Source of the DNA: Chlamydiales bacterium
Lineage (GTDB): Bacteria; Chlamydiota; Chlamydiia; Chlamydiales; JAAKFR01
Assembly (NCBI GenBank): GCA_044869735.1
Contig: JBIOXR010000105.1
Span: forward strand, 1 to 31,175
Length of the DNA: 31,175 nt
Direction of reading: 5' to 3'
Shown here piece after piece: positions 6,147 to 17,132 of this stretch (the first letter of the stretch is position 1; every line of letters starts with the position of its first letter). A program made the translations under genes and the position numbers. The notes below the pieces were generated by a model. It saw only the letters and a list, made by a program, of their open reading frames with translations, did no database searches and was not told the DNA's origin.

Positions 6147-6679
6147 TCGGATTTCTTATTTTCCTGCTGCTGTTCTTTTAGAAAAATTCTACGGTACTTA
6201 AAAATTAATTCAAAAAAGGCAAAAACTGCCATTACCGTAAAAAAGAGATAGATATAACCAGTAAAGACGAAACTGCATGAAAGACCGAGTAAAATGACGA
6301 ATTGAGCAAAAGTGGTCATTTTCCCCCAAAAGATGGCGCTCCATTCATATTTTTTCCACCCTCCCACGCAAAGCAGATAGACACCGAAACAACAAATAGC
6401 TATTTCTCTAGAAAGGAAGGCGAGGAGTTCCATATCGGTAAGTCTTTTTTCTAAAAAAAAGACTCCGCTGGCAAAAAAGATGAAAAAACGGTCCATCAGA
6501 GGATCGAGAATAGCTCCGAATTGGCTTGCTGTCTTTGTCTTCCTCGCTATAAAGCCATCGAGGAAATCGGTCAAAGCAGCGAGAAGCGTGGCAACTAAGC
6601 GGATAGCGACGTTAGATTGTAGAAAAGCGAATGCAAAGCTTGCTCTTGAAAGCGATAAGACATTCGAAAAAGTTAACAT
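6143..6679 (-). CDS. pgsA: CDP-alcohol phosphatidyltransferase (PgsA-like)
   Basis: Signature TDFLDGFIARK...FGAILDPLMD. Confidence 0.85.
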   Translation of the reverse strand: MLTFSNVLSLSRASFAFAFLQSNVAIRLVATLLAALTDFLDGFIARKTKTASQFGAILDPLMDRFFIFFASGVFFLEKRLTDMELLAFLSREIAICCFGVYLLCVGGWKKYEWSAIFWGKMTTFAQFVILLGLSCSFVFTGYIYLFFTVMAVFAFFELIFKYRRIFLKEQQQENKKSD

Positions 6680-7299
6680 TAATCGATTTCTTTTTCTGTT
6701 CGGGCCCTTTTTCTTTTATACCAAACGAAGAGAAAAGTTGCGATGGCAAAAACAGCAAAAATCGCAATATTGATTTTTGTAATTAAATGAGAGAAAAGCC
6801 ATTCACTTTTCCCAAAGTAATAGGCCAAAGAAAAAACAGCAGCTGTAGAGAAAAGGCATGCAAATAAATCGACGATTAAAAATTTCCCTAAACGCATTTT
6901 CCCCATTCCCGCCGTTAAAAAAAGAGGGTAACGGAATCCAAAAGGGATAAACCGCCCAAGGATGAGAGTTGTAATCCCATGCTTTTCATAATGTTGGCGA
7001 ATCCACTCCACTCTATCTTTACTAATGATCTTGGAAAACCACTTCAGTTTCAATAGCGGTGGACCTAACTTTCTGCCAGTAGAATAGACTAAAATATCTG
7101 CGATAAAAGCACCAAAATAGATGGCAGCATAGATCTTCCAGATGTTATCGGGGACGATTGTGCCAGCTAAAACACCTCCGCCAATGATGACGAGATCTTC
7201 ACTAATAGGCAGGCTTAATCCTGCCATAACTAACAAACAGAAAATTACATAGTGTGCAGCTTCGGCATGAGAGATGATAAAATTGAAAAGTGTTTCCAT
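6679..7299 (-). CDS. DedA-family membrane protein
   Basis: LPISEDLVII.GG and LGRFIPFGFR motifs; hydrophobic; 206 aa. Confidence 0.9.
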   Translation of the reverse strand: METLFNFIISHAEAAHYVIFCLLVMAGLSLPISEDLVIIGGGVLAGTIVPDNIWKIYAAIYFGAFIADILVYSTGRKLGPPLLKLKWFSKIISKDRVEWIRQHYEKHGITTLILGRFIPFGFRYPLFLTAGMGKMRLGKFLIVDLFACLFSTAAVFSLAYYFGKSEWLFSHLITKINIAIFAVFAIATFLFVWYKRKRARTEKEID

Positions 7300-7420
7300 A
7301 TTTTTTTAAATATATCACAAAAAAAGAAATTGAAAAACAAAGAAATCAAATTTTGTTCAATTAACAAAATTAAGTAATTCATTTGATGTAAAAAATAATT
7401 TTATTTTTTATTCTATAGAT

Positions 7421-7584
7421 AGAGACGTTCGTTGAATGAAACAAGTAGCGATTTTTGATGGATTTTTTTTCCCATTTTGCATGCGTTCCGAAGGACATAC
7501 TTGAATAAGTAGGCCAAGGAATGCATGTAAAATGGGGAAAAAAAGACGCAAAAACCGCTCTTGTCTCATTCAACGAACGTCTCT
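7421..7584. repeat. Palindromic intergenic element, copy 1 (164-bp rod-like inverted repeat, MITE/ERIC-like architecture)
   Basis: Perfect 19-bp terminal IR AGAGACGTTCGTTGAATGA (7421-7439) / TCATTCAACGAACGTCTCT (7566-7584). Near-continuous pairing runs inward to the apical TACTT-GAAT-AAGTA (7498-7511). The 27-nt core at 7492-7518 is identical to the reverse complement of 26697-26723. Confidence 0.9.
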
Positions 7585-7596
7585 TAGGGTACCTAA

Positions 7597-8670
7597 ATGA
7601 ATTTCAAATCAACCACTGCTCTCCTTGTGGGGAGTGGTGCATTAGTTGGACTATTGATCGGCGCTCTGGGGGTTATTCTTGGGGAAAAAAGAAATTCCCC
7701 AAATCCTATCCCATATCCACCCCCGCTCTGCCCTTTTGAAAATTGCATAGCGGCGGTCGGATGCATTCAACCTCTTAGAGATGAGCTTTGGATTGGAGTT
7801 CCTTTTGCTGAGGTCATTCAAGATGTTTATGTACAAGAAGGCGATGTCATCCCCAAAGGAGGCAGACTCTTCTCTCTATGCACCACTGCATTAGAAGCAA
7901 AAAAAAATCAAGCTAAAGCCGCGTTTACCACTGCTCTAGCTGAATATTCGCTACAGTTGTCACTACCGAGGGCAGAGACGATTCCCCCTCTAGAAGCTGC
8001 ACTAGAAGCTGCTAATGCTGAATACGAAGACTCACTCAAACACTATGAGCTTTACAAAAATGTCGATGAACCAAAAGCGATCAGTTTGGATGAATTAAAC
8101 CAGAGGATGTGGGCGGCCATTGCCGCCAAATTCAGAAAAGAACATGCAAGGGCCAATCTCGAGCTCGTAGAATCAGGAGCTTGGGTGAAAGATATTGAGA
8201 TTGCCAGAGCGAGGGTAATAGAGGCCAAGGCATGGATCGATGCTGTTGAAATCGAAATCGCTCGAGCGATCATCCGAGCTCCCTGTGATGGAGAAGTGCT
8301 TCAAATTAATATAAATGAAGGAGAAGCTGTTTCGGGGACGACAGTTCTGACACAACCTCATATCCGTTTTGGAGATACCCATCGATTCAGAATCTTGGTC
8401 AATATTGACGAAGAACAAATCTGGAGAGTGATAAAAGGCGCTAAGGCTAGAGCTTTTGCAAGAGGAAACAGCTCCATTTACGTCGATCTCGATTTTAATC
8501 GAATACAACCACTAGTTGTTCCAAAACAAGCGATTGCGAATCAACCTAAAGAACTGGTCGATGTTCGGGTTTTACAAGTGATCTATGAATTCGATCGAAA
8601 CGACCTCCCTTTTTACGTGGGTGAGCTCGTCGATGTTTATTTGGAAGGGAAACCCGATGAGATTACTTAA
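7597..8670 (+). CDS. HlyD/DevB-like membrane-fusion (periplasmic adaptor) protein
   Basis: N-terminal TM anchor; lipoyl-like halves EVIQDVYVQEGDVIPKGGRLF and IIRAPCDGEVLQININEGE flanking a coiled coil; DVRVLQVIY near the C-terminus. Confidence 0.88.
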   Translation: MNFKSTTALLVGSGALVGLLIGALGVILGEKRNSPNPIPYPPPLCPFENCIAAVGCIQPLRDELWIGVPFAEVIQDVYVQEGDVIPKGGRLFSLCTTALEAKKNQAKAAFTTALAEYSLQLSLPRAETIPPLEAALEAANAEYEDSLKHYELYKNVDEPKAISLDELNQRMWAAIAAKFRKEHARANLELVESGAWVKDIEIARARVIEAKAWIDAVEIEIARAIIRAPCDGEVLQININEGEAVSGTTVLTQPHIRFGDTHRFRILVNIDEEQIWRVIKGAKARAFARGNSSIYVDLDFNRIQPLVVPKQAIANQPKELVDVRVLQVIYEFDRNDLPFYVGELVDVYLEGKPDEIT

Positions 8671-10069
8671 ATTTATCCTCTCTGTAGCACCTTTTCTTTT
8701 ACATGGTTGTGCCCATTTTTACTGCCCTGTATGCCGAGTGCCTTCTTGTTATATAGAAACTCCACAAGAGACGCCTATAGAATGTAGCTATGCACTCTGC
8801 CAGTGGTGGGAGCAATTTAATGACCCCCAACTAGTCTCCCTTGTACAAGAAGCGATTGCCTGCAATTATGATTTCCGCATTGCCTTGGAAAAAATATGTG
8901 TTTCCAGAGGATGTTATCAGCAAGAATTCGGACGCCTTCTCCCACAACTTGATTTAGATTTTTCAGTCACCCGCACCAGAAACAGCGAAACGTTGGCCAA
9001 CTCCGAATTCTTGGGTGCGACTTTTGTGAATTACTTTTTAGCAGGCTTTGACGCTTTCTGGGAAATCGATCTCTTTGGCAAAAATTGGAATGCCAAAGAG
9101 GCTGCTTTGTTCGATTTTTTTCAATCGAGAGAGCATGCGCGTGATGTTTTAATCACTTTAATTAGCGAAGTTGCAGAGAGTTACATCACCCTCTTGGCCA
9201 TTGTAGATCTTCAGAAAATAGCCTTGAGCCATATTGAAAATGAAAAACAACTCGTCATGGTAACTGATGCTCGTTATGAAGGGGGCTTGACCGATGCAGT
9301 AGATGCATTAAGAGCTAAAGCTCTTCTCGATGAGAAAGAGAGTGCTTACCACCAACTCGAACACCTAAAAAAGGCAGAGATCTTTCGCATTGGCACCCTT
9401 CTGGGGCGTCCTCCTGAAGAAGTGGCCTGTTCTTTCCAACATTTACCCTCTTTGCCTCTAGTCGAAGGGATTATTCCTCTAGGACTGCCTTCCGATCTCC
9501 TCTGTCGCCGGCCAGACATCCGCCAGGCCGAATATAAACTCCATGCCGCTGGCGCGCGACTTTTAGAGGCCCAAAAGCAATTACTTCCCACGATTTCTTT
9601 AACAGCAACTTTTGAGTGGCTGACTCGAAGCTTGCCTCTCCTCTTCAAACCCGATAGTCGCAATTGGATGGGAGGCCCTGCTGGTTTAACAATGCCCATT
9701 TTTGAAGGTGGCATCTTGCGCGGGAATATCATTGTAAAAAATGCTAGGCAAAGAAGCGCGGCATTAAATTATGAAAGAGCCTTTATCTTTGCCTTGCAAG
9801 AGGTGGAAACCACAATGACGACTTATGTGGAAGAGATGAAAAAAGTGTTCTACCTAAAAGATGAGGTTGCCTCCAACAAGGAGGCTCGCGAGCTTGCCGA
9901 AATTCTCTATTTCAATGGAGTGGGGGACTTCAAGCTCGTCATTGATATTGAAAGGGATCTTTTTGATGCCGAAATACGTCTTGCTGAAAGCAAACGCAAC
10001 GCCATGGCTAATCTGATTGCTCTTTATAAAGCTCTCGGAGGGGGTTGGGAATGTATCGATTTGCAGTAA
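8657..10069 (+). CDS. TolC/OprM (NodT-type) outer-membrane efflux lipoprotein
   Basis: Lipobox FLLHGC after the ATG at 8657; WWEQFNDPQL, WEIDLFG, PSDLLCRRPDIRQAE and C-terminal LYKALGGGW motifs. Confidence 0.92.
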   Translation: MRLLKFILSVAPFLLHGCAHFYCPVCRVPSCYIETPQETPIECSYALCQWWEQFNDPQLVSLVQEAIACNYDFRIALEKICVSRGCYQQEFGRLLPQLDLDFSVTRTRNSETLANSEFLGATFVNYFLAGFDAFWEIDLFGKNWNAKEAALFDFFQSREHARDVLITLISEVAESYITLLAIVDLQKIALSHIENEKQLVMVTDARYEGGLTDAVDALRAKALLDEKESAYHQLEHLKKAEIFRIGTLLGRPPEEVACSFQHLPSLPLVEGIIPLGLPSDLLCRRPDIRQAEYKLHAAGARLLEAQKQLLPTISLTATFEWLTRSLPLLFKPDSRNWMGGPAGLTMPIFEGGILRGNIIVKNARQRSAALNYERAFIFALQEVETTMTTYVEEMKKVFYLKDEVASNKEARELAEILYFNGVGDFKLVIDIERDLFDAEIRLAESKRNAMANLIALYKALGGGWECIDLQ

Positions 10070-17042: not shown

Positions 17043-17132
17043 CGGAAAGAGAGGGATTCGAACCCTCGATACCCCTTAACAGGGTATGCGTCCTTAGCAG
17101 GGACGTGCTTTCGGCCACTCAGCCATCTTTCC
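17043..17132 (-). tRNA. tRNA-Ser(GCT), long variable arm, CCA not encoded
   Basis: Minus strand reads GGAAAGATGGCTGAGTGGCCGAAAGCA-CGTCC-CTGCTAA-GGACG-CATACCCTGTTAAGGGGTATC-GAGGGTTCGAATCCCTC-TCTTTCC-G: 7-bp acceptor stem, anticodon GCT, TTCGAAT T-loop, discriminator G followed by CAT. Confidence 0.97.

Follow-up and report, generated by a model that had tools for sequence, protein, structure and literature searches.

Several families of small palindromic repeats have been described in bacteria. ERIC (or IRU) elements, 127 bp long, are small imperfect palindromes with terminal inverted repeats and a target duplication; they are co-transcribed with their neighbors, exert an orientation-dependent, ribosome-linked effect on the mRNA, and possess a contiguous open frame, TA termini and no known transposase (PMC2229807). 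YPAL (or RU-2) of Yersinia is a 168-bp element that forms a long stem-loop and contains a contiguous frame of 56 codons, reported to be co-translated with upstream genes (PMC2229807). The Correia or NEMIS elements of Neisseria (107–155 bp) have long inverted repeats and a 2-bp duplication, lie close to genes, and are co-transcribed into RNA hairpins that have been proposed as RNase III targets, again with no identified transposase (PMC2229807). In Rickettsia, an obligate intracellular bacterium with a compact genome, the palindromic elements (RPE) are translatable repeats with one frame open, and R. bellii harbors as many as 526 copies, 53 of them inside protein genes (PMC1458961, PMC2229807). 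[quoted passage not shown] Here we analyze two copies of a palindromic element, at positions 7421–7584 and 26631–26840 of a 31,175-nt stretch of DNA from a Chlamydiales bacterium (contig JBIOXR010000105.1 of assembly GCA_044869735.1), which we call the window.

We consider it likely that both sites are copies of a non-autonomous miniature transposon, comparable to ERIC, YPAL, RPE and Correia elements and tolerated at gene junctions. A first-pass annotation of the window had proposed a repeated palindromic family with covarying stems and conserved loops, reminiscent of ERIC- and RPE-type elements but belonging to no family known to it. That outline survives: the family extends well beyond the two window copies and covaries strongly, its loops and apex are its most conserved parts, and ERIC- and RPE-type elements are indeed its closest analogues. 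The analysis adds three features that were absent from that annotation, namely that the target is duplicated over 2 bp, that neighboring genes receive stop and start codons from the ends of the element, and that an open reading frame (ORF) is maintained on the opposite strand.

Extent of the family and its paired fold

The two copies share a 27-mer, AGGACATACTTGAATAAGTAGGCCAAG, which matches exactly at 7492–7518 (+) and 26697–26723 (−) and is not found at all in shuffled sequence. A third copy, with one mismatch in the 27-mer, lies on another contig of the same 1.45-Mb assembly. Twenty copies from eight genomes were aligned to build a covariance model (R1), which detects seven clear copies in this genome (E <= 7e-9) plus one or two degenerate ones; the expectation of many copies genome-wide was thus too high for this assembly, which holds only seven to nine. 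These extra copies have other outer arms and variant apexes, including one in which the apical mini-stem ACTT/AAGT is replaced by AGTT/AACT, a compensatory change. The 27-nt core that had been called invariant is so within one subfamily only, as the apical tetraloop varies and variant apexes occur in the same genome.

Beyond the source genome, R1 matches in 48 of 151 Chlamydiota genomes, in each of two samples, with one to about 20 copies per genome. The richest chlamydial families have matches in 14 of 17 and 13 of 22 genomes, and a family of 1.0–1.2 Mb genomes has none in 27. An exact-pattern scan of species-representative genomes located the core in at least 118 stretches, the titles of which name Chlamydiae or related groups or no taxon, apart from a few Verrucomicrobiae. 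The plasmid collection gave no match to the core pattern. The sole match in the viral collection (L276:13517-13539, in a giant-virus bin) is most likely due to chance, as it sits inside a 569-codon ORF without the architecture of the element. At the curated gathering thresholds, the element matches no family in Rfam 15, and at a permissive E <= 10 it retrieves only look-alikes among microRNA hairpins, far below threshold. Searches of the accessible literature brought up no description of the element, nor any small repeat family for the environmental chlamydiae. Judged against Rfam and that literature the family is apparently undescribed, and we regard it as probably specific to the Chlamydiota outside the Chlamydiaceae.

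The whole element is one long imperfect palindrome of 163–167 nt, or about 161 bp plus a 2-bp target duplication. Taking the strand that carries the 27-mer core as the top strand, the consensus of 129 copies begins with an outer 5′ arm that reads ATGAACCTATCyCACTATTC... for the major subfamily and (TA)GAGrsGT... for the one to which the copy at 7421–7584 (copy 1) belongs. Inward from this arm come a conserved GATTTTTGAnGG, then ATTTTTTCnCAGATTTT, a variable inner stem and the apex CAGGACATACTTGAATAAGTAGGCCAAG; the 3′ half consists of the mirror stem, GnGAAAAAAG, ACnCAAAAAGC and a closing arm, ...GAATAGTGrGATAGGTTCAT. The terminal inverted repeats, in which GAACCTATCyCAC... pairs with ...GTGrGATAGGTTC, are only the beginning of a pairing that spans the entire element. 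This stem comprises T-rich and A-rich segments and a freely covarying inner part, and it is interrupted by two conserved asymmetric internal loops, GATTTTTGAnGG facing GACnCAAAAAGC. The arms between these loops and the apex vary freely yet remain paired. Because asymmetric loops are conserved, the palindrome is not regenerated by simple copying of one arm onto the other.

Covariation was counted on 92 distinct sequences. Standard pairs occupy 95.6% of cells, compared with 82.8% after shuffling and about 50% with the partners slid, and two-sided changes occur at 38 of 49 pairs (570 cells), a level reached in none of 500 shuffles; these figures are generous, the alignment having been fitted to the model and the sequences being related, yet even so the signal is very large. 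The pairing of the stem is itself under selection. The two strands are also not equivalent: in 17 of 21 copies the better fold is that of the top strand, and transition mismatches in the stem, read on the top strand, are G–U in 276 instances and A–C in 112. The excess persists among copies whose left end adjoins a gene (285 vs. 95) and among those without a terminal gene (267 vs. 128), and it is weak in the few whose right end does so (29 vs. 21). This bias points to a single-stranded form, and in that respect the earlier proposal of selection on a folded single strand fits the data.

Mobility and occupation of gene junctions

The mobility of the element is evident from its distribution. One relative (G020) carries five near-identical copies at unrelated loci. 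In this genome leuS starts at the terminal ATG of an element, whereas the leuS genes of four relatives have the same start codon with no element upstream. Similarly, at the sdhA–sdhB junction, where the copy at 26631–26840 (copy 2) resides, the element is present in none of 26 relatives, most of which have a spacing of 0–20 nt or an ATGA overlap. With the element proper taken as GAACCTATC...GATAGGTTC, the flanking dinucleotides are identical in 78 of 94 copies: AT/AT in 69, TA/TA in three, AA/AA and AG/AG in two each, and GA/GA and CT/CT in one each. Among the 25 copies that are not AT/AT, nine have direct repeats, against 1.6 expected, and one has an inverted repeat. The element thus makes a target-site duplication of 2 bp and strongly prefers AT. 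It has the size (about 100–300 bp), the terminal inverted repeats, the target-site duplication, the lack of a transposase gene, and the dispersed, polymorphic copies by which MITEs are operationally defined; the part of that definition not found here is a matching autonomous insertion sequence (IS).

Altered copies are also present, with apex-replaced forms beside truncated ones. In the genome of the window, a decayed element of the copy 1 type lacks the 3′ inner half (C54:1321-1477). A 55-bp derivative in G020 consists of the arms only (G020:C1:1500992-1501046, L244), and its terminal ATG starts an IscS/NifS-like ORF (MIYLDNNATT). Two copies in another genome (G225:C2:247981-248180, L241; G225:C2:321166, L243) have canonical arms and loops with the apex swapped for longer or unrelated sequence, and a 219-nt length class recurs at at least four loci of this genome. 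In G129, several contigs end within the element.

The positions of the copies favor start codons and stop/start junctions. The ends of the major subfamily read ATGAACC...GGTTCAT, such that each end offers a TGA stop reading inward and GGGATAGGTTC-ATG reading outward; the latter can be read as a putative Shine–Dalgarno-like GGGA, a 7-nt spacer and a start codon. Since the AT is duplicated, an insertion into the AT of an ATGA overlap rebuilds both the TGA (from AT and the GA of the element) and the ATG, and an insertion into a stand-alone ATG rebuilds the ATG alone. We analyzed 90 distinct canonical copies, calling the bottom strand sense where the complement of the core reads in the direction of the gene. 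In that orientation, 46 copies supply the ATG with which an ORF of 75 or more codons begins, 19 supply the stop of the upstream ORF (A-TGA-ACC), and 16 supply both. With the top strand sense, the corresponding numbers are seven, eight and three, bringing the totals to 53 starts, 27 stops and 19 copies donating both. The 46 start-donating copies precede 44 distinct gene families, so that these occupations of start codons must be independent events. The genes downstream include those for LeuRS, Hsp70, adenylate kinase, RuvB, a Mur ligase and a metallophosphoesterase, and because their Pfam domains begin at or near residue 1, the element-supplied ATGs are the native starts. The element is almost always upstream of a gene: only one of 126 copies lies between convergent genes, none of the 90 is internal to a gene, and two of the 90 are fused in frame to the downstream ORF.

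The bottom strand carries a further feature. In most copies it is open for about 52 codons, from the far terminal ATG to the TAG of GA-TAG-GTTC-AT, which lies 5 nt before the near ATG. Among the 165-nt copies this through-frame is open in 46 of 62; for comparison, 14.0 would be open if substitutions were relocated at random, 15.2 if they were relocated among variable columns only, and 24.0 with columns shuffled (maximum 35 in 500 runs). Variants of 164 and 166 nt are open through the element as well, bringing the copies open from end to end to 62 of 90. In the 35 copies with non-canonical ends, the frame is open in 66%, against 0–6% for the top-strand frames. The asymmetry has a simple correlate in the internal loop, the two sides of which differ by 1 nt, leaving the bottom frame open (TTT AAA) and the mirror frame of the top strand closed (TTT TAA). 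An intact frame is present in 38 of the 46 copies that donate a start, as opposed to 16 of the 44 others (Fisher p = 1e-5), and in 36 of 44 when counted by gene family. Its three codon positions are about equally variable (0.96, 0.92 and 0.88 bits). The absence of a codon-position signature indicates that selection acts against stop codons and not on the peptide.

Possible mechanism and competing explanations

How might such an insertion be borne at the start of a gene? One possibility is that the through-frame acts as a translational relay. The element would be co-transcribed with its neighbors, and in the RNA hairpin the far end would pair with the near end, burying the downstream ribosome-binding site and AUG. 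A ribosome ending at the far UGA, or one starting at the overlapping AUG, could open the foot of the stem, translate the relay frame through the hairpin and terminate 5 nt from the downstream AUG; translational coupling would thereby be restored despite the insertion. Such a relay, to which we give slightly under an even chance on the sequence evidence, would explain both why start-donating copies favor one orientation (46 vs. 7) and why an intact frame goes with start donation. Two runs labeled transcriptomic yielded two short contigs that barely touch the element. The hairpin, with its conserved loops and apex, is probably also the form that an enzyme recognizes for propagation, and the position of half of the insertions at start codons may reflect either target choice or survivorship. 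Taken further, the element could be a start-site-specialized transposon that lands in the AT of ATG or ATGA, brings with it a stop, a relay frame, a ribosome-binding site and a start, and presents its hairpin to a mobilizing enzyme, maybe of a new type. This last proposal is tentative, and we lean somewhat against it.

Several observations weigh against the interpretation as a miniature transposon with a relay frame. The start codon of the relay frame is itself located at the foot of the hairpin. The G–U bias resides on the strand opposite the through-frame and is not predicted by the relay. Across subfamilies, the interior of the element is more conserved than its termini, the reverse of classical MITEs. 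As most of the target duplications are the palindromic AT, the argument from direct repeats comes down to the nine copies counted above, and because family members are related by descent, the statistics overstate their independence. Neither window copy is typical: in copy 2 the orientation is the minority one and the frame is broken, and copy 1 differs in its ends and supplies no codon. Nor did a source of mobility come to light. Five genomes contain no pairs of terminal repeats 0.7–3 kb apart, only pairs 55–350 bp apart and solo remnants; in two genomes with at least 19 model matches each (G129 and G216) there are no hits to DDE_3, rve or DDE_Tnp_1, and in G129 none to Y1_Tnp. The search for a transposase sharing the ends or core, which the first-pass annotation had envisaged, likewise produced no match: no long element with the same ends was seen that could serve as an autonomous parent, and the ends of the IS630-like elements in G205 and G225 are unrelated to those of the repeat.

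If mobility is accepted, a different route would be a single-stranded-DNA transposon, in which the repeat is a palindrome-only derivative of an IS200/IS605- or REP/RAYT-type element and an HUH tyrosine transposase recognizes the folded core strand. The strand bias described above would suit such a scheme, as mismatches in the core-strand stem are two to three times more often G–T than A–C, and so would the conserved, asymmetric unpaired loops and the frequency of Y1_Tnp genes (PF01797) in the order, where 71 of 150 genomes have one. To our knowledge, however, insertion of IS200/IS605 and REP elements duplicates no target sequence, and their subterminal hairpins are short (20–40 nt) and do not form one 165-nt palindrome, whereas the chlamydial element has both a 2-bp duplication and a 165-nt hairpin. 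Y1_Tnp was not found in the genome of the window or in the copy-rich G129, G057, G035 and G012; a Y1_Tnp gene is present in 28 of the 48 genomes that carry the element and in 43 of the 102 that do not, an association of no use in naming an HUH transposase as its partner. We therefore consider this route unlikely.

The remaining alternatives dispense with mobility or give the element a different primary role. A portable promoter or curved-DNA cassette, the full hairpin of which is never transcribed, would drive neighboring genes from sigma-70-like promoters and phased T/A tracts. By eye, some copies do contain TTGAAG-N17-TAGAGT (top strand) or TTGACT-N16-TAGAGT (bottom strand), T5, T6 and T4 tracts follow one another at about 11 bp, and copy 1 occupies most of a divergent promoter region. 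Yet the hexamer pairs are not conserved, as nine of 71 copies have a pair on the top strand and 23 of 71 have a weak TTAAAA-N18-AAAAAT on the bottom strand; a scan of the copy 1 spacer places its sole promoter-like site outside the element; and many copies lie within operons at stop/start junctions, where no promoter is needed. This makes the cassette quite improbable. A dedicated cis-regulatory RNA, such as a leader, a thermosensor or a protein-binding 5′ untranslated region, kept at the genes it controls and not mobile, would account for the very stable covarying fold with its conserved loops, for the position directly upstream of genes with the ribosome-binding site and AUG in the stem, and for the common orientation of all three close copies in the source genome with their downstream genes. 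It is harder to reconcile with the lack of any association with a gene class (44 downstream families of diverse Pfam types), the absence of the element at orthologous positions in relatives (leuS, sdhA–sdhB), its two orientations, target duplications, and decayed and nested derivatives, and the absence of a matching Rfam family; we think it very improbable. Least credible, in our estimate, is that a small protein of about 52 residues encoded opposite the core is the functional unit and the palindrome incidental. Its frame is open far above chance, starts with ATG and ends with a stop codon, but the equal variability of its codon positions, the free variation of the peptide through compensatory stem changes, the mere five similar called proteins among 5.8 billion, none of them with a Pfam family, and the open frame in subfamilies without the terminal ATG all speak against a selected peptide. 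The miniature transposon thus stays our preferred explanation for the two window copies.

The window copies and their relation to known repeats

Copy 1 (7421–7584, +) is a complete 164-nt hairpin element with ends (TA)GAGACGTTCG...CGAACGTCTC(TT). It scores 150 bits with R1 at 7420–7585, and its predicted folding energy is −96.4 kcal/mol for 164 nt, within a range of about −96 to −110 kcal/mol for the window copies. It takes up 164 of the 297 nt of a divergent spacer between two genes identified by Pfam: a VTT/DedA-family gene on the left (6679–7299, −) and an HlyD-like gene on the right (7597–8670, +), which is paired with an OEP gene. Its ends are of the other type rather than that of the major subfamily, its flanks are TA/TT, and it supplies no codon to either neighbor. 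The 5′ internal-loop motif GATTTTTGATGG (7450–7461, +), which is among the most conserved columns of 129 family members, ends 30 nt before the apical core (7492–7518, +), a mini-hairpin TACTT-GAAT-AAGTA between small internal loops; the 3′ internal-loop motif GCAAAAA (7548–7554, +), part of GACGCAAAAA, begins 29 nt after it. On the opposite strand, a stop-free stretch of 74 codons (7382–7603, −) represents the conserved frame of the family (...LFASFF...WPTYSSMS...KKSIKN...) without a starting ATG.

Copy 2 (26631–26840, −) belongs to the major subfamily, has the ends (T)TGAACCTATCC...GGATAGGTTCAT and scores 166.6 bits with R1. It sits exactly at the junction of sdhA and sdhB, both identified by Pfam, with the core strand sense, its flanks being TT/AT and its bottom-strand frame broken. 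The sdhA ORF (26838–28766) ends in a TGA (26838–26840, −) within the left terminus of the element, and sdhB starts at an ATG (26629–26631, −) that is preceded by GGATAGGTTC and whose first one or two bases are the right end of copy 2 or its target duplication. The apical core (26697–26723, −) matches the 27-mer exactly, and the GATTTTTGATGG (26754–26765, −) and GCAAAAA (26661–26667, −) motifs were confirmed in position, with the same spacing to the core as in copy 1, just as the first-pass annotation had reported. The inner stems it quoted pair as described in both copies; its count of wobbles was off, copy 1 having two G–T pairs in a 15-bp stem and not three, and copy 2 none. The length of copy 2, 210 nt, is due to an unrelated 45-bp mini-hairpin repeat (TAGTTGATTCAGG...CTGAATCAACTA; 26780–26824, −) nested in its left arm and flanked by TA/TA. 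Further copies of this repeat occur in the same genome at C60:1896-1940 (98% identity) and at a contig end (C83:1-34), and C118 and C56 have partial ones. The repeat has the appearance of a second MITE, unrelated to the first, with TA as its target.

Some smaller observations concern the two copies and the surrounding DNA. In the 5′ arm of copy 1, T5, T6 and T4 tracts recur about 11 bp apart, with mirror A-tracts in the 3′ arm (7450–7490 and 7519–7555), and copy 2 is alike; these phased tracts predict intrinsically curved DNA. At the apex (7492–7518, 26697–26723), the core strand reads TGA-a-TAA-g-TAG, that is, stops in all three frames, and its complement, in the conserved open frame, translates as W-P-T-Y-S-S-M-S. 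Tetraloop variants lacking the TGA exist, and the three-frame stop may therefore be incidental. As listed, the HlyD-like ORF (7597–8670) and the following OEP/TolC-like ORF (8585–10069) overlap by 86 nt (8585–8670); the true start of the latter is probably further downstream than 8585. The sole Rfam match in the window is a tRNA of 90 nt (17043–17132, −; 58.8 bits), the length of which suggests a long variable arm.

The element has practical consequences for annotation, as it breaks assemblies at contig ends, inflates the spacers in operons such as sdhAB, and fixes the start position of neighboring genes in over half of the canonical copies. Environmental chlamydiae live as obligate intracellular bacteria, and their genomes are compact and operon-dense. 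The repeated, independent use of start codons in 44 gene families, along with a frame kept clear of stops, suggests that selfish DNA may endure in such a genome if it brings along a stop, a relay frame, a ribosome-binding site and a start of its own. The parallel with the translatable palindromes of Rickettsia further suggests convergence in intracellular bacteria. It is the behavior at start codons and of the putative relay frame that makes this more than a routine repeat.

Set against the described families, the chlamydial element shares some traits with each. The ERIC elements belong to another phylum with no sequence similarity shown, and have TA termini where the duplication is mostly AT here; PMC2229807 mentions for them neither the donation of start or stop codons nor the phylum-wide covariation that the chlamydial element displays. 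YPAL comes close in its nearly identical size, long stem-loop and open frame, but is from another lineage with no sequence relationship shown; what distinguishes the chlamydial element is that its ends rebuild stop and start codons and that its frame is intact mainly where a start codon is donated. RPE-1 to RPE-8, compared by description, are set apart by insertion context, since RPE typically lie in frame inside genes, whereas the chlamydial element, internal in none and fused in two of the 90 canonical copies, occupies gene boundaries. Correia elements have TA as their duplication, together with an IHF site and putative promoters, whereas the chlamydial element duplicates AT, has no established IHF or promoter motif, and ends in sequences that encode a stop, a likely ribosome-binding site and a start. 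The ends of RUP match IS630-Spn1 and the element has stops in six frames, in contrast to the unrelated ends of the IS630-like elements in G205 and G225 and the one open frame of the chlamydial element. The REP/BIME elements with RAYT and the IS200/IS605 group differ in their short hairpin, in their lack of duplication, and in the Y1 transposase of their host genomes, which was not found in the genome of the window or in several copy-rich ones. The chlamydial element thus appears to be no member of ERIC, YPAL, RPE or Correia, given its different phylum, AT duplication, consistent absence from gene interiors and codon-rebuilding ends, and it is nonetheless these four families that, by analogy, it seems to resemble most in function.

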